DNA of 64,000 bases from contig OZ024743.1 of assembly GCA_964016885.1 (NCBI GenBank), forward strand, positions 290,098,001 through 290,162,000, in the 5' to 3' direction. The DNA is from Eledone cirrhosa (Eukaryota). Under the pieces are notes generated by a model that was given only the letters and a program-made list of their open reading frames with translations, searched no databases and was not told the DNA's origin. Numbering within the stretch: position 1 is the stretch's first letter; each line of letters begins with the position of its first letter. Positions 1,808-53,480 of this stretch are shown here, in pieces. Both the position numbers and the translations under genes were made by a program.

Positions 1808-3337
1808 TACTGACATTAATGTATGACATACCTCAACTGTGCTGATGTTTCAATTCCAGTCTTGGCAGTGATTTATTACAACAAAACTCAATATTTATAT
1901 ACCACAAGTAATAGTGTGACAAACTAAATATGATGGAGAGGGATACATAGCGGGATATAGGAGTGGGTGAGTAGGAAAAAGTATAGAAGAAATAAATAAA
2001 TAAACACGTAAGTATATAAATGTTAAATATTTAACTATTTGAATATGTAAATATCCGTGTTAGAGAAAAAGACAAAGGAGAGAGAGAGTGTGTGTGTTAA
2101 ATAGAAGAGCAAAGGGAAAAAGATAAAAACATAAAGATAAAAAGAAGGGAGTGGGAGATAGAGATGATAGAATATATAACTGCATAAGGAAAAGAGATAA
2201 AAAAGAAAGAAAGAAGAAAGTATGAGAGTATTTATCATAACTTAATTGCATATCACCATCTGTATATATGCATTTTATATAATGTTTAGAATTATAAATT
2301 TTATAAACAATGCTATTTAAATCAATAGTTGTCAATTACATATAGGATTAATTATTAGTTGTATTTATTCTTGAAAGTACTATTATTTCGATTCAACCAA
2401 ATCTTATTTTATTCAATACTATAGATCAAGTTAAATACAGATTATTAATAAATTTGGATAAAACGAAAATTATACACGATAAATGTAAACAAATGAGCTC
2501 CGTACAATATATCCAAACGTTTAAATTAACTAAAAGGTTTGAAAGCCTGAAAGTATTTCAGATCTCTCAAATTTAGAAAATTCAAGACATAAAATGAGGA
2601 CTCTAAAAACAAACTAAAGGTATTTAGTCAATCAAGAGATTAACTTGCTATATAAATGAACTGATATGCATTTCCTAAGGTGAGGTAAAACATTTTACAT
2701 AATACTAATAAAAACAAGAATTATTAATAAAAGTGAATATCTTTTTTCACTCAGTCAATGATTTTTCCTAAATGTATATGATGCTTGAAATATTTTTATA
2801 GATTTATGGAGGCAATTTGAAAATAACTCACTTTTTGTATTAATTAAATTACCATAATTAGCAATTATTAATAGATTCTCTAAATTGCAAATATTGCAGT
2901 TTGGTGAAATGGAATCGTTACGATAGGATTCAGAGTTTCTAAGCTTAACCCAAGAAATTGAGTATTTCATATTTTTCTCTTTTAAATACCATATTAATTG
3001 TGATAATGAAGTAGACATTTTTTTATCTGGATTAGAAAAAGAATGTTTATGATTGGAAAAGCGAAGTTTAAAGTTCGATGAAGTTGCACCGATGTAGTTA
3101 TAAGTAATATTATTATTTGTTTTAATGGTACATTTATATACTAAATTCTTATCAAGGCAGTTATTTCGTAAAGGGCATTCGGATTTCCTTCTACAGATAC
3201 AATTCAATTTCATGTTATTTCTATAATATAAACTGTACATATTATCATTGTTAGTATCAGGTGTTCTACAATATGTGTTTAAATTATTGTTATTGTTATT
3301 CTCAATAACTATTGTATTATTATTATTACTATTGTTA

Positions 3338-3396
3338 AAAGTACCAGTAATACACTGGTTCATTGCTGGCCTTGTGCCTAAAATAGAAACAATTAT
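3338..3396 (+). mobile_element. 3' fragment of the tRNA-derived SINE inserted in the PLE ORF
   Basis: aaagtaccagtaatacactgg...gctggccttgtgcctaaaatagaaacaatt matches the SINE 3' end at 8145-8203; lies in the AAT-rich linker and splits the ORF. Confidence 0.75.
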
Positions 3397-4008
3397 TACT
3401 ATTGTTATTATCGCTAATTATATGTTGGTTTGAATTAAGAATTCTGCTATTAATTTTTGCAATATTTTGAGCCATATTCATGGTTGTTGAGTACGAAAGT
3501 TTAACTGTGTGTCTATTGAAGATAGAGTAATATTTATGTGATCTAGGGAAACATTCATCCAAGGCTTTGAAAAATATATGTGGTAAAGGCGTTTTAATAG
3601 CTAAAGATGCTGGCGGGGCATACCAAATAATAGTTCTAGTTCCAATTTTTTTCACCGATTTATTCTCCAAATTGTTATTTTTATTTATATTTATATTTTT
3701 ATTTTTACAGTCAGTTTTATTTATATTATTCCTAATATTATGAATATTTTGTTTATAATTACTATTATTATTTTCTACATAGTCAATATTATATTTATAT
3801 CCTTTTTTATGTAACGCTTCATTGTAATATCCAACTTTACTATTAAAAATGGATTTGTTAGCAGCTACTCTGGTTATACGTTGTTGAACACTATTGACTA
3901 TTGCATTTTTAACACATTTAGGATGATTAGAATAAAAACTAACATAATTTAGGTCATATATTCATTGAATAATCAATGAACCTTGTTTAACATTTGGTTA
4001 ATTATATA

Positions 4009-4048: not shown

Positions 4049-5870
4049 AAACAGAAATAACAACACAATCGGTACAGAATATGGAAGGAATATATTACGT
4101 TAACGCTTGAAATAGCAGGAAGAGGGTCTTAACGTTTCGGACGCTATTCTTTAATCAGAAGAAAGAATGAGAAATAAGGTAGATTGAAGGGACAGGGGTG
4201 GGTGGAATTGGAAAAATTGTCTTTAGATAAAAATAGCAGGTCTATTCATGTTGTCATTTCTTGGAAATTGATGATGCTGACATTAGGCGCATGGTTTATT
4301 TTTGTAGAAAAGTGGATGATGGAACCCGTCTACCTGATATGGGAAAAAACCGTTTTTTAAAAAGAGCTATACTTGTGCACGTGCGTATTCATGTGTGTGT
4401 GTGTGTGTGTGCGTGTATCTGTGTGTGTGTGTTATTATACATCCATACGAAGCTAAGAATAAATGTGTGTGTATATGTAAGTAAAAGAGTGTGTGTTTGC
4501 TAGTAAGTACGAAGCTATGAGTAAAAGTATGTTAAAAGTGGAGTGTACATATTTGGTCGGTCTGTATTAGTTGTAAGAGAATATGTTTCTGACCATAAGA
4601 GAGTTATAGAATCTAGGGGTGAATTTACAAGCGCGTGTGTGTTAATGGACGAGGTGTTAAATAAATTGGGGGAGGGGTGAGTTGAGTCCATGAGGGAAAT
4701 AGGACCCTACGCGGTAAATCAGACTCTGTTTAGGTCTGTTGCGGGAGGCATGTGTTTCGTGATGTAAAAGGACACCCAGGATTCAGACATGTAGGGTAAA
4801 ATGACCAGCAGAACGGAAATGACGGGTGACAGGAGTATCCAAACCGAGTCGTGTGTCCCTCAAATGCTCAGCAAAACGGTCCGCTATACGGTGTCCCATT
4901 TGTTCGATGTATAAAGACTCGCGAAGGGAACACAGCAGAGCATAGACAACGTGGGTTGATGTGCAGGTGAATGAGTGGAGGATACGGAATGACACGTTAT
5001 GGCCTGTGAGAATGGTGAGGGTGGAAATGAAGAGACAAGTGTTGCACTGGGGACAAGAACAAGGATGAGAGCTGGGTGGAGTCGTAGAAGAGAACGAGAA
5101 GGAAATGTGTTCCAGTAGGTCACGGAGGTTACGGGCGCACTTAAATGCGGTAATGGGTAGCTTTGGAAAAAAGTGAGAAGTGACGGTGTCAGAAGAGAAG
5201 TTGCGAAAGGAACGGAGGATATTTCGCCGGAGTGGTAGAGTAATGGCGTGGTAGGTGAGAGGGAACGGGAGGCGGGTGGTGAGAGGGCGCTGGTGAGGTG
5301 AGAGGGCTGTGGTACGGTCGGTTACACGGGCGCGGGTGAGAGCAGCTTGGATCAGGGTGGGGGATATCCACGCTGGATGAAGCGGGTAGCAGTGTGAAGG
5401 GAATGGGTTTCGAAATCGTCGTCCTGGCTACAGAGCCGGCGAAGACTGAGGAATTGGGAATAGGGTATGGAGTGTTTGGTGTGGGTTGGATGGAGGGAGG
5501 TGAAGTCGCCTAAGATTGGGGTTGGTTGGTTTATAGAGGATGGAAGTAGAGAGGCTGTGGTGAGAGTGATCGTTAGATAGAGAGATATCTAGAAAAGGCA
5601 CAGATGAATCGGAGACGGTGGCGCTGAAGGTGGGAGCAGGATGAAATGATTGGACAAAAGATAGTAATGAGTCGAGCAGTTCTCGTGATAGCGAGGTGGC
5701 GCCGATACAGTCGTCGATATAACGACCGTATAGCTCAGGAGTAGGTCCAGCGTACTGGGAGAAGATCTGGGCTTCGACGTAGCTAGCAAACAAGTTGGCA
5801 TAGTTTTGTGCCATTCTGGTTCCCATCGCTACCCCAGAGACCTGCTGATAGAATTCACCCGAATAGGAAA
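4045..5870 (-). mobile_element. Penelope-like retroelement remnant (RT + GIY-YIG, frameshifted)
   Basis: MGTRMAQNYANLF...YGRYIDDCIG...VPFLDI...YKPT (PLE RT); CTSTHVVYALLC...LYIEQMGHRIADRFAEHLRD (GIY-YIG); decayed HHR at 4127-4162 (CTGATTA...GAAAcgTT); (TA)n flanks. Confidence 0.9.
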
Positions 5871-5931
5871 TGTATATATATATAAAGAAAAAAATGCGAT
5901 GTTGTATATGTTAGAGTCTCTTATTTATTGA

Positions 5932-11983: not shown

Positions 11984-12473
11984 AAACGGAAACAATGAAA
12001 CGAAATTTCATTTCCCACTCTTAGTACGGCTGTTACTTAAATATAAGTATAAGTATGTACACGTACATACATATATGTATACAGACATACAGTAGTATGT
12101 ATATATATATATATACATACATGCACACATATATATATATGTACGTATGGATTCACCGAACATTTATTATAATGCTCGGTGTGTTTGTAAACAAACATCC
12201 CGTATTAAGCCGTAGTGTCCAGCAACCATTGTTGCTCGTTTGTTCAACACATACAAAGGAACGCTGTACTAGTTTCAAGCTTATTAGCTATCGTCAGCAA
12301 CGTATACCTTCCTGCCAGAGTGTTGAACGTCTGAAAGTATATACTTTCCTTATGCATATTAACGGCTGAGTAGCCCAATTTGCATATCGAGTGGGTTAAT
12401 CGGCGCCGAGTGCACCGAAAACGATAAACGGAAAAAATGAAACGAAATTTCATTTCCCACTCTTAGTACGGCT

Positions 12474-14120: not shown

Positions 14121-14124
<4 letters not shown>

Positions 14125-14709
14125 ATATGAAAACAAGCGTGCTGCCTGGTTGCAGATGGGTTACAAATGAATAAATTTAGTGCTTCATCAGTGATCCTCC
14201 AACCTTCTTTGGTATTTCATCGCTTTAAAGACCATATATCTCCGCTTGGTACGAGCAACGGCTAAAGAAAGTCGCTGGGACACGTAATTAAGGACAAGGA
14301 GCGAGACTGTAAACAATCAAAGATGGTAATGCAACGAAAAGTGAGGAAGAAGGAGTCAAGTCCATGAAATCGATGAATATAAGTTCTGTGAAATCGTGGA
14401 CGATAGAGAATAAAGACCATCACACCTGGTTGAAATGTGAGCAAGGAAAGAATTTCGCACAGGTGAAACGGGAGGAAGAAGGAGACGAGAGAGAATAAAG
14501 AACAACCGGCCTGGTCAAAGTGTGCATGAGGAAAGAATTTCGCCCAGCTGAAACAGGAGGAAGTAGAAGAGGAAGTAGCAGAGAGTGAGTGAGTGAAAGG
14601 TGAGGAAGAGTCTAACAGAGAGAGTGACTGTTGGAGGGGTAAAGGGAAGTGAGACATACAGATAAAGGAGGAAGCAGTAAGAAAGAAACAGACGGGTCAC
14701 AGCGGAGGA

Positions 14710-14710
<1 letters not shown>
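14121..14710 (-). mobile_element. Non-coding element, family delta (one monomer) with permuted hammerhead at 14182-14240
   Basis: Co-linear with 26095-26810; shares ccgctgtgaccc and the 3' junction with 52888-53480; (TA)n on both sides. Confidence 0.8.
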
Positions 14711-14749
<39 letters not shown>

Positions 14750-17500: not shown

Positions 17501-20081
17501 TAGGAAGAAGTATGACCCCGACGGCAGAGCACAAGCCGTTTCGACGGATAATTCTCGTCTAAATAACAATTTTTAGCCTGGTAAATAAATAGCCAAACAT
17601 CTCAGGAAGATAGTCATTGACAAAAGGATTGGTCAAAAATTTGTTGTAAAGACATGATTCTATCACGGCATTTAGTGGAAGGTAGGGTAGCTGAACTTGC
17701 CGGTAGAACAAAGAGGGAGTGGGGGAAAACAGTCAAGCTTTGAAAGTGAAATCTATACAGCAGATTCTAAGGATAGTGTATAGAAGGTCGAAAAAAGTGT
17801 ACTGGAGAATAGGGTTGGTGAAAAAAGGTAAATCGAAAAGGAGTAAACAAAAAAGCCATTATAAAAATGAGGAAATAAATATATAAAAAAACAATTTTTG
17901 GCTACTACTCCATCCCCACAATCACCAAATCTCCCATTGATATGGCTCATCTATAGAAAAGTTTAATAGGTGGAGAAAAATGCTAAATACCCGATTGTAG
18001 TGAAAGAATTTTATAAAGCCATCTTTACAGTGGGTCTAACACCACTGCTATAGTTAGCAGTAATCAGCCAATGCTATCTTATAATGACAGGTTAATAAGT
18101 TGAGGACGAACATACTAAAAAACTAATACGAAATATTAATTCAGAATACTAATACATACATACTAATAAAAGAATAATAATGCAAAAATACCACTAAGAA
18201 TTTTAGAAATCACGGAAATGGAGCAGCAACCAGAAAGAAAGCAATTATCTGGGGCCTAACACGTCTGCTATGAAAAGGGTAATCGGCCAATTCTATCTTA
18301 AAATTAGGGTAGGGGGTGCTGAGGCTACAGAGGACCGATGGGCTGCATCGGAGTGGGCGCGAGGTGAAAAAAAAACGACAAGGAAGGAGATATGCGGTGG
18401 AAGGACAAGGCAGAGCTGGGGGGAAGAAGGAAATATAGAGGAAAAGATAATAAAAATTAAAAAGTTACGTCTACCTTTGTAGGCAAGGGTTACCCCTTAC
18501 AAAGTCGGCAAGTGGGGTGTTTCAGCCCTTGTCTACCCCCCCCCCCCCGGGTTATTATGGGGTTTCAGGGCGAAGTATGTCCTCCGCAATCTATGTTTGC
18601 ATGCAGTTACCAGTTCGTCTTCCTTGTTTAGGAGTTGGTCCTTCGAAAACAGCATTTGTAATGTTTCCTCCTAGCATAAGTTACACGGACGGCGTCTTCT
18701 CGTGTAAGAGTTAGCTCTGGACAGTAAGCTCCAAGTGAGATTGTAGGTTATATTATTATTTTTGAGGTCCCACATGTGGCCCGAAAGTGTAGTGGCGTGA
18801 CGCCGGGCCGGGTTTCGGAAAGTATGTCTGTCTAGATAGAGCCGGGTCTTGAAGTCACAAGAGGTTAATCCTATATAAGCTTTGTTGGAGGTGTCCGTCC
18901 TCACGTTGCACTGGTAGATCACATTACGATCTCGGCATCTGTTGTTGAGGGGGAAAAGGGGTCTATCAGCACAGTTACAACTCCTGGTCGACTCTCTACT
19001 GCTGTCTAGGTTATTTCTTCCATAGGGGTGGTGTTTTTTGTTGTTAGAGGAGACGATCTTTTGTGCAAAGTTAGGTGTGGTGCTGTAGGAGAGTTTGATG
19101 TTGATTTTGTTGATTATGTTGTGGTAGCGGTCTTGTAGTGGGAAGTGTTTTTCGATGAGCCTACAGAAGATTTTCCCTATAGGTGTTGTCACCTCGGCAT
19201 TGTGAGGGTGGATTGAACCATGTTACGGTGTGTGAGCGGCGGTGTCGTGCTAGTTCCGCTAATGGAAGCTGGATAGTACGATATTTCCTCCCGGAAGCCA
19301 CTCCGCTTGAGGGCCTGGTTGTAATAAGGCGCACATTCATCGAATATTTGCTCATTAGTGGTATTTTTGCATTAGTATTCTTGTATTAGTATTTATGTAT
19401 TAGCATTCTGAACTAAACTACTAACTATAGCAGTGGTGTTAGACCCCCTGTAAAGATGGCTTTATAAAATTATTTCACTACAATCCCGTATTTAGCATTT
19501 TCCCCCACCTATTAAACTGTTCTATAGCTTAGCAATACCAATGAGAGATTTGGTGATTGTGGAGATGGAGTAGTAACCAGAAATTATTTTTTTATATATT
19601 TATTTCCTCATTTTTATAATGGCTTTTCTGCTTACTCGCTTTCGATTTACCTAATTTTTCAAGTCTCTCTCCTCCAGTACACTTCTTTCGACCTTCTATA
19701 CACTATCCTTAGAATCTGCTGTATAGATTTCACTTTCAACGCTTGGTTGGGTTTCCCCCACTCGCTCTTTGTTCTACCGGCAACTTCAGCTACCCCTACC
19801 TTCCACCAAATTCCATGATAGAATCATCTGTCTTTACAACAAATTTTTGACCAATCCTTTTGTCAATTACTATCTTCCCGTATATGGAATTACCCCCTGA
19901 GAAGTTCGGCTATTTATTTACCAGGCTAAAAATTCTTATTTAGTCCAGAATTAGCCGTCGAAAAGGCTTGAGCTCTGCCCTCAGGGTCATACTTGTTCCT
20001 ATTAATCACTATACTACTCCTCTAAGTATTGAGTACTTTGGTGCGTTATGGTCCATCTGGATCCTTAACACATTTCCCTCG

Positions 20082-25713: not shown

Positions 25714-26094
25714 GACGCACAGACATGCGCGCGCACACAAACACACACAAATATATATATATATATATACGGAGATAGAGAGAGAGAGGGGGAAAGAAAT
25801 AGAGATATATAGGTATATATATGAGTGAGAGAATATGCTCCGAAATCATTAGACGTGTCCGTCGAACCTGCGGGTCCAGAATCAGACAGATCCACACAAT
25901 GATCGCGTTTCAAGCAGTCCGCCGGTGATACAATTGTAACACAGAATAAATAGAGTTCAGATGCATCACTGATTTTTCGTTTTCTATTCTATCATACTCT
26001 GCTCTGTAAGAGCAAAGTGAGCAAAACCGCCATACCGCCTATGGAAGCATCATAGCTACCATCAGACACACACACACACATATATATATATGTA

Positions 26095-26809
26095 TATGAA
26101 TAAAGTGGTCCTTCATCAGTGATCTTCCAACCATCATCGGTATTTCTTCGCTTTAAAGACCATATGCCTTCGGTTGGTGCGAACAGCAGCTAAAGAAAGT
26201 CGTTGGGACACGTAAATAAAGGGAACAGCGAGAGTGTAAACAAACAAAGATGGTGAAGCAACGAAAAGTGAGGAAGAACGAGTCAAGTCCCAAATTTCCA
26301 TGAATATAAGTTCGGTGAAATCGTGAACGACAGAGAATAAAGACCATCAAACCTGGTTGAAATGTGAGCAATGAAGGAATTCCGCACAGGTCAAACGGGA
26401 GGAAGAAGGAGTCTAGTCCGTGAATTCGGTGAACATAAGTTCTGTGAAATCGTAGACGAGAGTGAGAAAAAAGGCGAACCAGCCTGACCAAGCGTGCGAA
26501 AGTAAAGAATTACGCACAGGTCAAACGGGAAGAAGGAGGAGGAGGAGATGTAGTAACAGATAGTGAGTGAGTGAAGGGTGAGGAAGAGGCTAACAGAGAG
26601 AGTGACTGTTAGAGAGAGTAAAGATACAGAGAAAGAGGAAGCAGTAAGAACGAAATAGACGGGTCATAGCGGGGGAAAAATATGTGTAAATATTAGAATA
26701 AACGTGCTGCGTGGTTGCAGTTGGGTTACATATGAATAAAGTGGTCCTTCATCAGTGATCTTCCAACCCTCATCGGTATCACTTCGCTTTAAAGACCATA
26801 TACCTCCGG

Positions 26810-26810
<1 letters not shown>
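26095..26810 (-). mobile_element. Family delta element: 636-bp monomer + ~75-bp redundancy, two permuted hammerheads
   Basis: Direct repeat 26095-26170 / 26731-26808; homology to 14121-14710 in a shifted (circularly permuted) register; (TA)n flanks. Confidence 0.85.
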
Positions 26811-26864
<54 letters not shown>

Positions 26865-27884
26865 TATATATAGAGAGAGAGAGAGATTAAACAAGACAAG
26901 AGAGCGGTAGAAACACGTCTTAACTGGGCTACCACTGGCAGAAAAAGAGACAGTTTACTTTACTTTTCTGCCGGAAACTAAAGAAGCCTAAGGCTAGAAG
27001 ACAGCAGAAGGTGTAGAAAAAACGCTGGTAGTATTGTGGATGACGGGTGAGAGATTGATGTTGGCCTCTACGTAGCATGACCTATGAGAAATTTTGATAC
27101 ACGACTTGTTAGTTCAAAATCCTCAGTTGTTAACGAGCCCGATAAATCGGTTGCAGTTGGTGTGTTTGGTGTTTCGGATGACGTCCACAATGTCACAGGT
27201 AAAGAATGCAGTTCCTCGCGTATCGGAAGAACGATTCGGATGCTGCACATGGCGGTGAGAGTTTGTGTTAGAAAAATCAACAAGTCAATGGCTACAGACA
27301 TTACAATGTGACTAGAATAGAGATGACGAAATGGAATGGGGACAATATGAGAAGGAAACACAATATTATCAACGAGAAAATACATCGGAAAATAAATGCT
27401 CATAACATATCGGCTACTATAATGATTTCACGCATTATATAGAAACTACGTAATGTGACAGCTAGGGATTAACAACATATGTCTTCCCCATTGGCTGGTT
27501 ATATGGTCTGGTTTGATAGGCCGTGTCTGACAGTATGAACGATCCGCGTATGATTTCACACATTTAGAGGGTGAATATGATTTTTGATGTGAATTTTTGG
27601 TTAAAATTTGACGTTTTATTTAGGATATTTGGTGAAGGTGTGTGGACAAGTTGGAGAATTAACAGTGTTATTTACGGAAATATATATTTATATATATGAA
27701 TGTATGTATAGTATATTTGCCAATATACCGTAAGTTTAATTAAAAACATGTAGAAGACTATTCGCAATCAGTTTTAAAGTAGTGGCTATGTCACTTACTT
27801 ATTTTCGGCAAAGGTAGGGAGAGCGGCTGATGTCTGTTTCTCGCTGTTTGGCGTTTATAAAAACCACACGGTCCCATGCCTTAA

Positions 27885-30050: not shown

Positions 30051-30617
30051 TTATATATATGAATATATACATTTTTTAGTGTTTGCGTTAGTGTATCTTT
30101 GTGTGTGTTTGTTTCCAAGCTATATGCTGCCGTGTGTTTTTGTGAGTGTGTAATTGAATGGAAGTTACTAAGTAGTTTGAATAAGTGACTAAGTGATTAA
30201 GAATATAGTCATTAATTAGCTAGGCCCCTATCGATTATATTATGGAAAATGCTGTCACCGTATTCAGTTCCTGTGATATATATTTTTGAAATTGCGATGT
30301 TTCATAATGTTATGATATTTTCTATGTTTTTCCTAATTGGCAAGCTTCGGCCATGACTTCTCCTTCCAGGAACTGACTCTGGACAAATCTAGCAGTAGAT
30401 CATGGATGGAAGCTACATCACAGTCCAAGGATAATATAAAAGCCAATGCGATGATCCCAGTGTCGTAACAACGCATTATCTAACTGAATCGTAACAACGC
30501 ATTATCTAACTGAATCGTAGAATAGTAATCAAATAAGCAACCTTACCTTCTTGATCCTAGCACACTGAAAACTAGGCCACCCTATTAGAACCCTTTTCAA
30601 AATTTACTGACAATCGT

Positions 30618-33600
30618 GTGTTAAAATCGGTTCGGTTTTATGCAAAGTTCGGTTTTATGCAAAGGCTAAAAACTTTATGGCACTCCAAACACCCAGAATT
30701 AGACTTTTCTCCAAAGCATCTAAATGAACAGGCAAAACGTATCATTAGATGTAAATTGATACATCTAACGGAATCGAGTGATACTACAAATACAGCCCTT
30801 GTAGACAACCACCCCACCTCCACTGACAGACAAAGAGAATGGCCAGCTAAATCTAACAGTGAACAGCTCACCAACAATTTTGCTGAAATCCATCCCACTT
30901 CCACTGAAGAACAGCGAGAAAGGTCAGCTGACTCTAGTAGTAATTGTCACCACATCAACAACGAGGCTGCAATTCATGACTCTACTGAACAAACAGAGCA
31001 CCAAAAACTTGTGGGCACCCTACAAGTGATATGGAACGATATGTTTCAAGAGATTCACAGCCTTAATGTGAGTGACAGACCATACAACACTAGAGTCAGT
31101 AAAGAACCCACTAAATTGGAATTGGAAGCGGTGAACGAAATAGCTGGCAATTATCTGAAGGCTATACGATCTAAAGGTGTAGAAACGACATTTGAAACGC
31201 TCAATGTTTTGTTATATGTTTCAGCTGTCACATTGCTATCATATAACACACATCTAAAACCACGCAATCAAGATACAAACAGAAAGCCTGAACCAGCGTG
31301 GATGCGAAATTTAAAAACCAAAATTTTGTCCCTGAGACGAAGTATCTCACACATCGCAGTCGTTATGAAATGCAACATAGAGAGAAACTTCACACGACAC
31401 CAGGAAGACCTAAAGAAAAAGTTAGAGAGACGATTTGGAGATACGAAATTTAAAACTTTGAACTCCAAATTACACCAGTTGAAACAACAACTCACAGCTA
31501 CAACAGAAAGACTAAAATATAAGTCAACAGCCCATAAACGACAAGTGCTAAATAGATTGTTTGCCAGAGATCCTAAATCAGTTTATCGCAGCTTCAGTGG
31601 CAAAAGCTCAATCCCTGTAAACGACACCCCTTCAAAAGAACAGGTTGAGAACTACTGGAGATCTGTATGGGAAACGGATGACGGATTCAACAGACAAGCT
31701 AATTGGCTAAAACAACTGGAACAGGACTACTGCCAACATGTCCAGACAAAACAATATGACATAGATGGGTCAATACTGGAAACAGCTCTACAGAAAATGT
31801 CGAATAGGAAATCGCCAGGCCCAGACCTCATTACAGGATACTGGTTGAAGAATTTCACTTTCTATCGGCAAGATCTCATACGGCTGTTTACAGAAACCAT
31901 TAAGGGCACACAAGAACTGCCCAGAGGGTTATCAACTGCCACTACTCTCCTCATTCCCCAAAATAGCCAAACCACCCTTGCTAAAAATTACCGCCCAATT
32001 GCCTGCCAAAACATCATGTATAAATTATATACTGGGTGCCTTAACCTGTTCTTACAGGATCACTGTGCTACCAACAACATCATAACACATGAGCAAGCTG
32101 GTGGAAAGAGGGAGGTGTGGGGTTGCATAGATCACCTACTAACTAACAAAATGATTCAGGAAAAAACAACAAAGAATCGCAGAAACATGACTGTCGTGTG
32201 GCTGGACTATCAAAAAGCATTTGATAGTGTACCTCATGGGTGGATTATTAAGGCTTTACAGTTAGCTAAAGTCCCACAACCATTAGTAGCTGCTGTTGAA
32301 CGCCTGACCAAGAACTGGTACACCAATTTGATCCTTAGAGGTGAGAAGGAGCAGGTTAAGACTGATAGGATACATTACCAGAAGGGCATCTTTCAGGGTG
32401 ATAGCTTGTCAGTACTACTCTTCGTTCTCTCACTGAATCCATTATCTTACCTACTCAGGAAACAAGGTGGACAAAGAAGTGGGCCCAGAAGTATCTCCCA
32501 TCTTTTCTTTGTTGATGACCTGAAGTTGTATGGGCCAAATATCAATGACATCAAGAAACAATTGGACCTCATTACACAATTTTCAACCGACATCAAAATG
32601 AAATTTGGTGAGTCCAAGTGTGCATATTTGGCAGTAAAACGTGGAAGAGCTGTGCCCTCCTCTAGAAATCTAGATATGAACGGCCTGACAATACAACCTC
32701 TGCAGTCAGGTGACAACTACAGATATCTTGGACAGGATGAGAATGTCAGATATGATGGACCCATAAATAAGGAGAGAACCAGAACTGAATACCTCAGAAG
32801 AGTAAAAAAAATATGGTCATCAGAACTGTCAGCATACAACAAATACATTGCCCACAATACCTATGCTGTGCCAATTCTAACGCCAACATTTGGCCTACTG
32901 AACTGGTCATTGCAAGAACTAAGTGAGATGGATGTTAGAACTCGAAAACTTCTCAGTGTTACTGGGAATTTTAACATCAATGGTAATGTGGATAGGCTAT
33001 ACTTCTCACGCAAGGAAGGTGGCCGGGGTCTAAAATCAATATTAACAACATATGAGACCCGGATAGTAACACTGAAGCAACACCTTCAACAGAGGAAAAA
33101 GGTTGGCGACCATCTTGCTCAGGTTTATGAGCATGAAAAAAGAAATATCATTAGAATAGCGACTGATCTGGAGGAGAGATATGGAATAAAGCCTGATATA
33201 AATCTCTCACCCAGAGAAATCGGAAGATCCTATTCAATGTTCAAACAAGAAAAAAAAATTGACCAATTTACAGAGAAAGTTGTGCATGGATACTTGAGGC
33301 GTAAAACACAGACCATAGAGGGGATAAACCACTCAAAAAGCCTGGCATGGAGTTCCGACAAGTTTATGACATCACACCTTGAGGGATATCTCTATGCAAT
33401 ACAGGAACAAGAACTCCCTACCAAATATCTGCTGCACAAAAGAGGAGGGCCAGCAGCTGACAATAAATGTAGGCTATGTAAAACAAAGATCGAGGATGTA
33501 AGCCACATTGTTGCCAGCTGCGAAAGAATGTCATCTCGCTACTACCTCCCCATGAGACACGATGGGATAGCTAGAACTATCTATAACGCACTTCGGAAAA

Positions 33601-34040
33601 CAAAATTAACAACAAACGAGGAAGAATATATTGAGACAGATGGCACTAAGGAATACTGGTGGAACCTGAAAATAAAAACTGCCACCAAATTAAAGCACAA
33701 CCGGCCTGATATTGTAGTTTGGGATCACACATTGAAAACGTGTTCTGTTGTGGAGATCAGCTGCCCACTTGATGTAAACGTTGTCAGAAAAATACAGGAG
33801 AAGGAGGACATCTACGGACCATTGATGAGGAGCTTACAAATCCAGTATCCAAGATACACCTTTAGCTTCATACCCATCATTATTGGTGCTACGGGTTATA
33901 TACCAACCCGCTTGGACCAAAGTATGACCGAACTTGGATTTGCGGACAAAAAGCGCAGCTCCCTAATTCATAGTCTACAAATGGCTGCGATAGCTGACAC
34001 CTTCAAAATATGCAAAACATTCTTGCGATTCAAGGGTTGA
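30618..34040 (+). CDS. R4/Dong-clade non-LTR retrotransposon polyprotein (RT, CCHC finger, PD-(D/E)xK restriction-like endonuclease)
   Basis: KSPGPD, NYRPIAC, WLDYQKAFDSVPH, GIFQGDSLS, HLFFVDDLKLY, YRYLG, GGRGL; CRLC..HIVASC, RHD, RPDIVVW..VEISCP; open for 1140 aa; start codon doubtful (probably 5'-truncated). Confidence 0.93.
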   Translation: MLKSVRFYAKFGFMQRLKTLWHSKHPELDFSPKHLNEQAKRIIRCKLIHLTESSDTTNTALVDNHPTSTDRQREWPAKSNSEQLTNNFAEIHPTSTEEQRERSADSSSNCHHINNEAAIHDSTEQTEHQKLVGTLQVIWNDMFQEIHSLNVSDRPYNTRVSKEPTKLELEAVNEIAGNYLKAIRSKGVETTFETLNVLLYVSAVTLLSYNTHLKPRNQDTNRKPEPAWMRNLKTKILSLRRSISHIAVVMKCNIERNFTRHQEDLKKKLERRFGDTKFKTLNSKLHQLKQQLTATTERLKYKSTAHKRQVLNRLFARDPKSVYRSFSGKSSIPVNDTPSKEQVENYWRSVWETDDGFNRQANWLKQLEQDYCQHVQTKQYDIDGSILETALQKMSNRKSPGPDLITGYWLKNFTFYRQDLIRLFTETIKGTQELPRGLSTATTLLIPQNSQTTLAKNYRPIACQNIMYKLYTGCLNLFLQDHCATNNIITHEQAGGKREVWGCIDHLLTNKMIQEKTTKNRRNMTVVWLDYQKAFDSVPHGWIIKALQLAKVPQPLVAAVERLTKNWYTNLILRGEKEQVKTDRIHYQKGIFQGDSLSVLLFVLSLNPLSYLLRKQGGQRSGPRSISHLFFVDDLKLYGPNINDIKKQLDLITQFSTDIKMKFGESKCAYLAVKRGRAVPSSRNLDMNGLTIQPLQSGDNYRYLGQDENVRYDGPINKERTRTEYLRRVKKIWSSELSAYNKYIAHNTYAVPILTPTFGLLNWSLQELSEMDVRTRKLLSVTGNFNINGNVDRLYFSRKEGGRGLKSILTTYETRIVTLKQHLQQRKKVGDHLAQVYEHEKRNIIRIATDLEERYGIKPDINLSPREIGRSYSMFKQEKKIDQFTEKVVHGYLRRKTQTIEGINHSKSLAWSSDKFMTSHLEGYLYAIQEQELPTKYLLHKRGGPAADNKCRLCKTKIEDVSHIVASCERMSSRYYLPMRHDGIARTIYNALRKTKLTTNEEEYIETDGTKEYWWNLKIKTATKLKHNRPDIVVWDHTLKTCSVVEISCPLDVNVVRKIQEKEDIYGPLMRSLQIQYPRYTFSFIPIIIGATGYIPTRLDQSMTELGFADKKRSSLIHSLQMAAIADTFKICKTFLRFKG

Positions 34041-34171: not shown

Positions 34172-35408
34172 CCTCGAAGCGAAGAAACCCGTTTCTCGAG
34201 CAAGTTTGTCTGCATGAAACAGATGAGATCATGAGAGTTGGGAAGGAACTCCTTGAGAGATATTCCTTGTGTGATAATCAAAATCTCACACCCAGGAATG
34301 TCGCTCAGCAGTATCGCAGTGAATCCATGGATGAAAAACTGCATGCCTATCAGCAAAAAATCATGCATTGATATGTTGACAGGAGGCTCCAGAGTGAGAG
34401 TAATATAGATAAGGAAAGTAGTCTATCTTGGACCAACAACCGCTATATTGGCTCCCACTTTTAAGGATATGCTTTTGCAATCCAGGAACAGGTGATTAGC
34501 ACGAAATACCTGATTCACAAAAGAGATAGGGATGCAGGCAAAACACCTAGATGTGATAACAAGTGCAGACTCTGCAGAACTAACATCGAGGATATCACCC
34601 ATGTCATCAGCAGCTGTCCAAAGATGTCATCGCGGTACTATCTACCTATGAGGCATGATGCAGTGGCCAAAACACTGTACAATGCAGTTCGTAAAAAAAG
34701 ATAACACCGATAATAAACATATTAAAAGATACAGCAATATGGAAGATATCCATGTACATAATATGAAAGAGTACAGGTGGAATGTTCCTGTAAAAAAAAC
34801 AATAAAATGCAGGCATAACAGACCAGATATTATGATATGGGACAGGGAGAATAAAGCATGCACAGTAGTGGAAATCAGCTGCCCAGCAGATGCCAATATA
34901 ATATCAAAGATTAGCGAAAAGGAGAACATTTTTGCAGAACTGATGAGAAATCTGCAGATTCTCCACCCTGATTACACTTTCAGATTTATGCCTGTGATTA
35001 TTGGGGCACTGGGATAAGTTAGTAACTGCCTCAATACAAATCTTGAGAAGCTAGGCTTCACAGGAACAGAAAGAACACAACTAGTTAGGAAATTACAAGT
35101 ACAATCCATTAATGGAAAAATATGTAAGACATTCCAAAATTTTGCATCTAATAACTGCATATACACATATACAGATGCAAAGCATATACACATGCACACA
35201 TACAACTCGAAACATACACATCCACACATAAAATAACATCCATATCTACACATGCATGCATACATACATATCTACCTAGTTGATGTGTAAATTCCAATGA
35301 GAAAGTCTAGTGTCTATGTTAGAAACCGACTCTCTCTCTATTGGTAAAACTTTGTGAAATTATAAAACCAGAAGAACATACATACATAATACATACATGC
35401 ATACATAT
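34172..35408 (+). pseudogene. Second, 5'-truncated and decayed R4/Dong-type element in tandem
   Basis: CRLCRTNIEDITHVISSCPKMSSRYYLPMRHD, HNRPDIMIWD..VVEISCP with stops and frameshift; ends in CATA repeats at ~35377-35406. Confidence 0.9.
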
Positions 35409-39952: not shown

Positions 39953-40886
39953 GTAAATATGTATGTATGTATACGTACATACATATATGTATACAGACGC
40001 ACAATAGTATGTATATATATACATACATGCTCACATATATATATATATATGCACGTATCGGTTTACCGAACATTTATTATGATGCTCGGTTTGTTTGTTT
40101 GTAAACAAACAGCCTGAATTACGCCGTACAGTGTTTAGACAACCGCGTCACCCTTTTGTTCAAGACTGACACAGGAACTATGTACTAGTTTCAAGCTTAT
40201 TAGCTATCGTCAGCATCGTATACCTTCCTGCCAGATGGTTGAACGTCTGAAAGTATATACTTTCCTTATCCATATTAACTACTGTACGTCTGTATACATA
40301 TATGTAAGTACGTATACATACATACTTACATTTAAGTAACTGCGGTACTAAGAGTGAGAAATGAAATATCGTTTCATTCTATTCCATTTATCGTTTTCGG
40401 TGCGCCCAGCCGACTAAACTCACTCGAAATGCAAATTAGGCTGCTCAGCCGTTAATATGCATAAGGAAAGTATATACTTTCAGACGTTCAACCATCTGGC
40501 AGGAAGGTATACGATGCTGACGATAGCTAATAAGCTTGAAACTAGTACATCGTTCATGTGTCAGTGTTGAACAAAAAGGTGACGTGGTTGCCTAAACACT
40601 GTACGGCGTAATTCGGGCTCTTTCTTTGTTTACAAACAAACAAACCGAACATTATAATAAATGTTCGGTAAACCGATACGTGCATATATATATGTGTTGA
40701 TGTATCTATATATATAACTTTGAATAACTTTGAAATGTTTTGGCCAGTATTGGCCCAGGCCATGTCTAACTTAATAGCACCACCTGGTGTACGTATGTAT
40801 ATATGTATGTACGTATACATACATATTTACATGTAAGTAACTGCCGGACCAAGAGTGAGAAATGAAATTTCGTTTCATTCTATTCC

Positions 40887-40942: not shown

Positions 40943-42960
40943 AAGAAAAGATGAAATCAAAAATGAAACTGGATGCTTATTTAAAAATATATATATATAT
41001 TTATTTGGCTCCTTTACCGGTTTCGCAGTTCTTCTGCTTTTCAAAAGTAGAGCTGAGATAGAGGGTCTGTGGTTTTTCTCACATTTGGTTGGTCTTTGAA
41101 TGTTACTTGTTTTATATGGAAAAAAGTGGCTCGAAACGCCAGGTTTTTAGAGAAGTAATTTGATTGGTTGGTCAATAAGTATAATACATTTTGCGCCAGT
41201 TCGCGTTACAAAGTTTATTCAAACAGGTAGGGGGGGGACTTAGGTTGTTTTTTCCTATATGAGTGTTTGAATTTCTTTTTACTTTCAAAAAAGTGGCTCA
41301 CGAGGCTTTTTTTAATAAACGTAATTTGATTGGTTACCAATGCCAAATTACCTACCGCAAACCCACAACCAACTGTCAAAAAATGTGGTCGCTCTAATTG
41401 TGGAACCTGCACTCACCTCATTGGAGGCAACACGTATATATTTAAATCAGGACTACATTTTGCAGTAAAAATTCACTTCATTTTCTCATCAAAAAATCTA
41501 CTTTATGCCATTAAATGTAAAGGATGCAATGAAGATTATATAGGACAAACTAAACTCAGAAGCAGAATGACAGCTCATCGCCAACCATTACGAGATCCAA
41601 CCACGAGACAGATACCACTAAGTGCACATCTAGACATATGCGCAAGTAATAAGACACCCAAATTCCAAGTCTTCTCATTTTACATTTGCGCTGACAATAC
41701 AGCAGAACCAATCCGAATAAATAAGGAAAATATGTTTATTCAAAAATATAGACCAGCATTAAATATGGTTTAATATACATTATGTCAACACCATAACATG
41801 CTAACCATCCAAAGAGACACATACACACACACACACATAACACCTCCTACTTTAGAAAATAAAAACCCGAACTAAATAAACCTTAACATACGTTTACGCT
41901 GACAATACAACAGAAGAAATACGAATAAGTAAGGAAAATATGTTCATTCAAAAATATTCCTACTAACGGAATCATTTTCCTACACACATACACACACACA
42001 CGCACAATATATATATATTCTCTTCATCTTAACATGCTAACCATACTCCCAGACACACATAACACCCATATACACATATAACAACCCCCATCCCCACACA
42101 AACAACACCCTCCCCCATTTCTACTAATAGAATCACTTTCCTACACACATATATACACACACACAGAATATATATATATACTCTCCATCTTAACATACTC
42201 CCCCCCACACACACACACATAACACCCATATACACACACACAACACCCTCCCCCATTTCCACTAATAGAATCATCTTTCTATACACACACACACACATAC
42301 AAAGACACAAATAAACATACATATCTTTTCTTTCTTTATTTCAATAGAAAATCTGAATTCTGACCCCCCAGCGAACTAACCATATTCACTGAACCAGAAC
42401 AATTCCCCCATCCCATTTCTCTTGACCATTATCTTTCGCTTGTCATAACATTTTCTAAAAGGGCTACAAAATATATTTCCAAATACGGGCGCGAATTTAA
42501 TGAACACTTGTTCATTTATAAACAATCAAATTACGTTTATTAAAAAAAAGCCTTTGTGAGCCCCTTTTTTTAAAGTAAAAATAAATTCAAACACTCATAT
42601 AGGAAAATACAACCTGAGCCCCCTCCCCTTGTTTGAAGACCTTTGTAACGCGAACTGGCGCGAAATTTATTATACTTATTGACCAACCAATCAAATTACT
42701 TCTCTAAAAACCTGGCGTTTCGAGCCACTTTTTTCCATATAAAACAAGTAACATTCAAAGACCAACCAGATGTGAGAAAAACCACAGACCCACCATCTCA
42801 ACTCTACTTTTGAAAAGCAGAAGAACTGCGAAGCCGGTCTATTTTAAAAAAAAATAAGACTCCAGTTGCATTTTCGATTTCATCTTTTTTTCTTTATACT
42901 TTCACTCGTGTAGGACATCTCGGTTATTTTTCATTTTGTAAAAAGAACCTCACTTTCTAA
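40938..42960 (+). mobile_element. Penelope-like remnant (GIY-YIG) with ~390-bp inverted pLTRs
   Basis: ORF 41330-41773 KCGRSNCGTC...NLLYAIKCKGCNEDYIGQT..RMTAH...RINKENMFIQKYRPALN; arms 40938-41331 / 42523-42897; (TA)n flanks. Confidence 0.9.
41009..41050 (-). ncRNA. Minimal hammerhead with U3-A8 variant core
   Basis: ctactt-TTGAAAA-gcag/ctgc-GAAA-ccgg-TA-aaggag; same core in the second arm (42810-42816). Confidence 0.65.
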
Positions 42961-52887: not shown

Positions 52888-53480
52888 ACCACACAGCTCC
52901 TTTCGTTTCTTATTATTTTGTATTTACCGCTGTGACCCTCCTCTACCTTTTTTGTTCGATCTGTGGTCCCACCACACTTTCGCATCGACTCTCGCCTTCT
53001 TTCTTCACTTTTCCCTCCTCTCTCTCGTTCTCTCTCTCCCTCTCTCTACTCATCCGTTCGCTTTCGATCGTTAACAACGTGTTTACACTTGTCGTAAAAC
53101 TCCTCTAGTTTCGACCGGTTACGACACGTTGTACAACTATCGTAAAACCCTTTTCGGATTATCTCCCATTTTTCTCTTTCTTCCTGTCTCCTCACCACCT
53201 TTCCCCCTTTGTTCTTCTTCCTCTTTTCCTTCCATTTCCTTCATTTTGCCCCTTTTCTCTTCTTTTCCTCCTGGTCTTTTTATTAAGAAAAGACCTTGGG
53301 CGCACTGCTGATCGCTATAGATGTCCTGTAAATAAGCGCCGAAACATCTTGATCGCGGATTACAGCTGACGAAGGATTCTTTTGTTTTCTTCTTTTGTTT
53401 TCTTCTCTTGTTTCGTCCATACCACTATCCTAAACCTTGTTTATAGTACCACACAGCTCCTTTCGTTTCTTATCATTTAT
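52888..53480 (+). mobile_element. Family delta element, diverged subfamily (560-bp monomer + ~30-bp redundancy)
   Basis: Direct repeat accacacagctcctttcgtttcttat at 52888 and 53448; ccgctgtgaccc shared with 14695-14706 (-); pyrimidine-rich body; (TA)n at the 3' end. Confidence 0.8.
53319..53375 (+). ncRNA. Candidate non-circularly permuted hammerhead ribozyme
   Basis: agatg-TC-ctgtaa ... cc-GAAA-catct ... ttacag-CTGACGA-agg: stem III agatgU/Acatct, stem I ctgtaa/ttacag, GUC triplet; stem II only gg/cc. Confidence 0.7.

Follow-up and report, generated by a model that had tools for sequence, protein, structure and literature searches.

The stretch of DNA analysed in this study, hereafter called the window, comprises 64,000 nt of the Eledone cirrhosa genome (G000:C4:290098001-290162000) and carries hammerhead-like motifs with permuted conserved blocks, two of them one repeat unit apart. 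What kind of element carries these motifs, and could its RNA cut itself into unit lengths? A total of three such motifs were confirmed on the minus strand where the original prediction had located them, all with the block order S-G-C (cut-site block, G block and CUGAnGA block). Their C blocks begin at 26755 and 26119, which are 636 nt apart, and at 14191. Another motif, at 53319, has the same block order with different stems, as had also been noticed before. The source genome (3.0 Gb) possesses many microsatellites and retroelement debris, and the output of repeat finders run on the window was dominated by microsatellites. No hammerhead family is present among the 150 matches listed of 161 from an Rfam scan of the window (E up to 1); these 150 are repeat-driven microRNA or UTR models below gathering scores.

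Table. Positions in the window of the permuted hammerhead repeats and of their predicted ribozyme parts.
Feature	Position	Strand	Description
Family B insertion, 716 nt	26095..26810	-	80-nt 5'-truncated piece followed by one complete 636-nt monomer
Full monomer	26095..26730	-	non-coding, longest Met ORF 64 aa; element strand 66% pyrimidine
(TA)n tract, 5' junction of the insertion	26811..26872		from the sequence
Internal direct duplication, ~130 nt, in the monomer body	26264..26541	-	about 75% identity
Upstream motif copy	26746..26810	-	without helix IV strand, P5 and stem II strand; P0 strand partial; two G-block substitutions
Downstream motif copy, whole predicted ribozyme domain	26108..26209	-	core intact; one stem III mismatch, two P5 changes
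Helix IV 5' strand, predicted	26206..26209	-	pairs with 26111-26108, directly 3' of the C block
Hairpin P5, predicted	26184..26205	-	pairing analysis
Relocated stem II 5' strand, predicted	26179..26182	-	pairs with 26151-26148, directly 5' of the G block
Helix P0 5' strand	26172..26177	-	pairs with 26132-26127; counterpart of the type-SGC stem I-II helix
Block S: stem III strand, predicted cut 26163/26162, stem I strand	26156..26168	-	pairing analysis
Block G: stem II strand, conserved G block 26146-26143, stem III strand	26139..26151	-	pairing analysis
Block C: stem I strand 26126-26120, CUGAnGA core 26119-26113	26113..26126	-	pairing analysis
Second family B insertion, subfamily B2	14121..14727	-	ends at the second fixed 3' point (~50-nt tail); motif 14182-14240
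Family A element, same architecture	52888..53478	+	560-nt period plus 31 nt; domain 53266-53376; predicted cut 53325/53326; stem II strand 53299-53303

The insertion at 26095..26810 amounts to 1.12 monomers of a ~637-nt repeat and is sited between (TA)n tracts, the TA/GT tract below 26095 being sequence beyond its 3' end. Both of its pieces, of 80 and 636 nt, terminate in the hammerhead motif. One private lesion had been ascribed to each copy, and the lesions proved to be neither all single nor all private. The stem III change of the 26119 copy is also found at G000:C3:263085513 (100% identity over 85 nt), and the 26119 copy has two further changes in the upstream hairpin P5. The 26755 copy contains two substitutions in the G block, retains nothing upstream of a partial P0 strand and is predicted to be inactive. 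The 14191 copy possesses an intact core, with breaks in stem III, P0 and helix IV. Contigs from three runs of one sample, which do not bear on expression, contain no letter change of at least 10% at core positions in 40 of 44 rows. That two ribozymes would excise a unit-length RNA, as originally proposed, is plausible for the family, where two intact-core motifs lie 619-638 nt apart at, for example, L005/L006, L022/L023 and L024/L025, but this fails at the present locus. Because the upstream motif is 5'-truncated and its G block is broken, 26095..26810 is a decayed insertion which would not release a monomer.

The 53319 element had been taken for a sister subfamily of the other three copies. 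It is instead a separate family, named family A here: the comparison of six of its monomers with eight of family B, to which the other copies belong, gave one 17-nt match only. The differing stems of the two families had been described as full covariation; they represent structural conservation and not column-wise covariation, while genuine compensatory changes were found among the subfamilies within each of families A and B. The core and stems I, II, III and IV as well as P5 are all kept in the family A copy at 53266-53376, which is the best natural test object within the window.

A pattern across the G and C blocks of family B has 9300 matches genome-wide against 2 for a reversed control, and the pattern for family A has 828 against 0, so the S-G-C motif is not a product of chance. 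Since the 9300 matches are copies of few repeats, the independent units are about eight subfamilies in two families. Monomer lengths across the repeats range from 560 to 790 nt. All 14 monomers examined are non-coding, their longest Met ORFs spanning 32-102 aa, and have an element strand rich in pyrimidines, and the one frame of a monomer body that was tested had no Pfam match. Monomers diverge by only 4-6% within subfamily B1 and within B2. The identity of B4 to B1 and B2 is 81-85% in the ribozyme domain and 81-84% in the body, and the domain is thus no better conserved than the rest. Families A and B have the core and the layout in common; because their bodies are not alignable, the case for selection depends chiefly on this common layout. 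A descriptor scan covering the window and the collected loci revealed no additional permuted family, only four isolated matches without stem II. The longest array seen contains nine B4-type motifs in tandem with a spacing of ~750 nt (G000:C1:43918167-43924212).

Besides stems I and III, the conserved pairings are P0, an upstream stem II, the hairpin P5 and helix IV. Stem II had been called not evident, and there is indeed none in the place where it was sought; its conserved complement lies upstream. This strand, of 4-5 nt, directly precedes P0, can pair with the bases before the G block, and was found 31-38 nt upstream of the G block in nine of nine representatives. In helix IV, the strand preceding P5 is complementary to the bases directly after the C block. 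P0 continues stem III and lies directly against the stem I strand. Helices I, II, III and IV, the four tested, are all present in the nine representatives, and swapping strands between families A and B loses pairs in I, II and IV and hardly any in III.

A total of 85 distinct copies with an intact upstream region were collected, of which 36 of 59 from family B and 22 of 26 from family A were aligned, the rest being near-duplicates or copies whose upstream sequence is rearranged or deleted. With a structure derived from the same sequences, and a shuffle control that ignores the relatedness of the copies, 97.6% of 1116 cells are paired in family B against 26-50% when slid, and 93.9% of 591 cells in family A against 38-49%, where the count omits P0 and the outer part of stem I owing to alignment gaps. 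Changes on both sides of a pair were found in family B at two stem I pairs and one stem III pair, and in family A at two helix IV pairs and one P5 pair. Stem II has no both-sided change within either family, and the sole one in this genome is that between A and B. P0 is 97.2% paired in family B and also visible in family A, with other sequences. As the patterns used to choose the copies require the core, its invariance in the alignments does not amount to an independent test. An alternative stem II, formed by the stem I strand and the bases that follow the C block, was rejected, as the changes in B4 preserve stem I but not this alternative. Judged from these alignments, a conserved permuted fold with an upstream stem II is very probable.

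Non-circularly permuted hammerheads, type-SGC and type-CSG, were described by Eckert et al. in 2023; the available text of that paper reports none from the genomes of known organisms, and states that type-SGC ribozymes cleave in vitro and require the I-II helix (PMC10085705). Only two natural CSG examples were known, from metagenomes. The repeats in this study resemble these ribozymes in the S-G-C order, the conserved core with a U-H site, compensated stems I and III, a short link between stems I and II and a helix that connects their outer ends. They also share the puzzle of a I-II helix abutting stem III, which was noted there for one strand. The main difference concerns block C. In the accessible part of PMC10085705 this block is assumed to be unsplittable, with a stem II strand directly following CUGAnGA; such a strand is absent in family B, and in the present repeats stem II is predicted to take its strand from upstream, and helix IV and P5 to stand between A9 and stem II. 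The portions available of PMC3088659 and PMC10162972 contain no example of a helix in that position, and hammerhead variants 'containing additional helices' are mentioned without detail in what is available of PMC13725137.

An unbroken block C could be retained if the active fold were a minimal SGC ribozyme, with a stem II of 1-2 bp from the bases directly after the C block and the upstream pairings acting as an inhibitory competitor. Minimal hammerheads are known in Penelope-like elements, and a 2-bp stem II can form in family A after a 1-nt insertion. Such a stem is impossible in family B and in the Acropora Naiads treated below, whereas the upstream stem II and helix IV persist throughout and covary, which leaves this alternative very improbable.

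The predicted fold with an upstream stem II is not free of difficulties. The link between P0 and stem III measures only 0-6 nt on both strands, and P0 tied in this way to stem III is hard to fit to the known hammerhead fold as a monomer. Minimum-energy folds, which admit nested pairs only and no pseudoknots, lack stems I and II, and those of B1 and B2 sequester the C block in a hairpin. Moreover, the pair next to the core (10.1-11.1) in family B is either mismatched or formed only with the base that follows A9, and in B1, the subfamily of the window, it is mismatched either way. A mismatch next to the hammerhead core should slow cleavage. The strain that the short P0-stem III links put on a monomeric fold would be relieved if cleavage occurred only in trans, within a domain-swapped dimer of neighbouring monomers, where one copy gives the loop of the P0-III hairpin and the other stem I, the core and stem II. 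The elements do occur as tandems, and in several predicted folds a nested hairpin of P0 and III is the first to form. However, natural SGC ribozymes with a direct helix link on one strand exist, and those tested cleaved as single constructs according to the available text of PMC10085705; we consider the dimer improbable.

The type of the element was deduced from the anatomy of its insertions. The 3' ends of 56 arrays were analysed, taken from loci L001-L060 and the window and restricted to arrays clear of locus edges; these loci were found by motif searches, so the sample is biased to copies that keep the motif. Of these ends 37 lie at monomer position ~637, although four of the 37 are chain breaks in a divergent subfamily and not true ends, 16 lie at 44-55 and three elsewhere. 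The two fixed 3' ends sit 68 and ~120 nt downstream of the predicted cut. The 3' flank is TA-rich in 49 of the 56 arrays, and 5' starts are scattered. Nine inverted pairs (18 arms) were found, six of which have their two arms at different end points, and partial tandems of family B form arrays of at least four monomers. Tandem, inverted and tail anatomy is reported for Penelope-like elements in the accessible part of PMC8557442. In another Penelope-like element, two internal start sites of reverse transcription account for the tail in vitro, and internal initiation on uncleaved RNA was demonstrated, according to the available text of PMC11167929. Partial tandems, 5' truncation, an inverted 5' copy, a tail at one end, microsatellite targets and the absence of coding capacity are all found in the repeats. 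Based upon the tandem, inverted and tail anatomy, the scattered 5' ends and the two fixed 3' ends, family B is almost certainly a non-autonomous Penelope-like repeat.

Other repeats were observed in the window. A high-copy repeat adjoins the insertion at 25900-25992, as suggested by the many contigs mapping there. At 30576-34040 (+) lies a non-LTR retrotransposon frame that is open over 1154 aa and contains RVT_1 and zf-RVT domains, and a related fragment occupies 34652-35017. Fragments resembling Penelope-type RT or GIY-YIG frames were found at 2755-3961 (-), 4783-5910 (-), 18671-19222 (-) and 41330-41773 (+), of which only the last has a Pfam match (GIY-YIG). Type I hammerhead-like motifs in canonical order are present in other repeats at 12297 (-), 39537 (+), 40213 (-), 40517 (+) and 20803 (-), and include an inverted pair at 40089-40641.

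Naiads were reported without a canonical hammerhead, some being marked 'HHR_core' or 'half_core', in the available text of Craig et al. 2021 (PMC8557442). For the 51 Naiad consensus sequences obtained from File S5 of PMC8557442, the terminal 280-420 nt were inspected by eye. By this inspection, five Naiad ends from two independent groups, two from octopus and three from Acropora, possess the full set of seven helices, including an upstream stem II of 6 bp. A ctenophore end, viewed likewise, shows all seven helices with a stem I of 2 bp, and a bobtail squid end only I, III and P0. In six nematode ends (Nbra-1, Nbra-2, Nbra-3, Hcon, Hpol and Asuum) the eye finds the complete type-CSG order with a long P0/I-II helix. 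No permuted motif was seen by eye in the last ~280-420 nt of 38 of the 51 sequences available. Permuted hammerheads would explain the reported lack of canonical ones in Naiads. As far as PMC8557442 is accessible, Naiads and the repeats in this study are alike in (TA)n targets, partial tandems, inverted 5' copies and tails, whereas Naiads encode an N-terminal GIY-YIG plus RT (CxC motif) and the repeats have no ORF. Because they lack an ORF the repeats are not classed as Naiads, and the likeness is limited to ribozyme layout and target. The ribozyme fold was likely inherited from Naiad 3' ends, with a Naiad as its probable source; that a Naiad is also the current helper is doubtful.

The search for an intact Naiad partner in this genome was negative among the 150 scored of 3237 candidates, and all Naiad-like RT copies scored are decayed ('Naiad-like' denotes motif resemblance by eye; Pfam gave the RT stretch no name). 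The Naiad-like family L142-L183 displays 71-85% identity to the query copy, with many stops and frameshifts and no intact ORF. No clear permuted motif was found in 11 regions downstream of Naiad-like RT copies. A back-translated RT motif gave three matches against three in the control, two of these being decayed Naiad-like RTs, and a short motif of the published octopus Naiad ribozyme gave 0 matches in the genome. A Penelope-type ORF beside L018 is intact and abundant, but it was rejected as the partner because its motif is in canonical order. Intact frames of ~1216 aa were found in a very abundant Penelope-type element arranged in 4.1-kb tandems (L076-L083, e.g. G000:C3:90461500-90477000). 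This element, which carries a motif in canonical order, contains an insert rich in Asn, has two fixed 3' ends, targets (TA)n and is apparently active.

The reading as a whole, to which we assign a probability of roughly two in three, is that of a high-copy Penelope-like repeat whose monomers end in an S-G-C hammerhead, with stem II completed by an upstream strand and with self-cleavage in intact copies. The RNA would be arranged in the order helix IV strand, P5, stem II strand, P0 strand, block S, block G, P0 partner, stem I strand with CUGAnGA, and helix IV partner. Read as a circle, this strand order would equal that of SGC and CSG, with the chain opened between A9 and stem II and closed there by helix IV. 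In this reading, intact copies would probably self-cleave, and tandem transcripts would be cut once per monomer. The monomer ends would then be clamped by helices IV, II, P0 and III, which may favour ligation to a circle; a circular intermediate is put forward tentatively. An RT-endonuclease of Penelope type, supplied in trans, would nick (TA)n, and reverse transcription may begin at two internal points, corresponding to the two fixed 3' ends. By copying through the cut site on a circular or uncleaved template, the RT could generate partial tandems, tails and inversions. The 3' ends past the cut are explained by an uncleaved tandem transcript as well as by a circle.

Cleavage itself may be questioned on several grounds. 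Genomic ends never fall at the predicted cut, and both the 10.1-11.1 mismatch of B1 and the geometry of P0 agree with poor activity. For a lizard Penelope-like element, the available text of PMC11167929 reports that ribozyme mutants left insertion unaffected, that the ribozyme needed protein and that no RNA-seq reads ended at the cut. These observations would suit a hammerhead-derived fold which is conserved but cleaves inefficiently, serving as a recognition or priming signal for a Penelope-type enzyme that makes its copies from uncleaved tandem transcripts. Yet a pure binding signal could dispense with the catalytic bases, and every core position, together with a valid U-H site, persists in both families, whose bodies are unrelated, as well as in Naiads of three phyla. 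Such a loss of efficient cleavage is therefore considered unlikely, and self-cleavage of intact copies is preferred.

Metazoan non-LTR retrozymes are the other known system to be compared (Cervera and de la Pena 2020, PMC7229834; Li et al., bioRxiv 10.64898/2026.07.22.740005). According to the available texts, they resemble the repeats in this study in being non-coding tandems with one hammerhead per monomer and a GC content below 50%, and mobilisation by Penelope-like elements, which has been proposed for them, is a further likeness to the present families. They possess canonical or minimal type I hammerheads in ~170-400-nt monomers, and circular RNA was shown, whereas the repeats here have monomers of 560-790 nt and a permuted ribozyme. 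A type I hammerhead in each tandem unit, by which metazoan retrozymes are recognised, was not found in these repeats, whose order is S-G-C and not C-G-S.

No account of permuted hammerheads in animal genomes or in Naiads was found in the open-licence literature of PubMed Central and bioRxiv. With slightly less than even confidence, we suggest that permuted hammerheads are native to many animal Naiads and that this genome harbours about ten thousand non-coding Naiad-type retrozymes, with the ribozyme opened between A9 and stem II, a fourth core helix, and product ends clamped for circularisation. If this is true, it would provide the first home in animal genomes and a biological setting for non-circularly permuted hammerheads, and the stated rule that the CUGAnGA block is inseparable from stem II would be broken. 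Naiads, which are widespread yet reported without canonical hammerheads, may carry permuted ones that standard descriptors miss.
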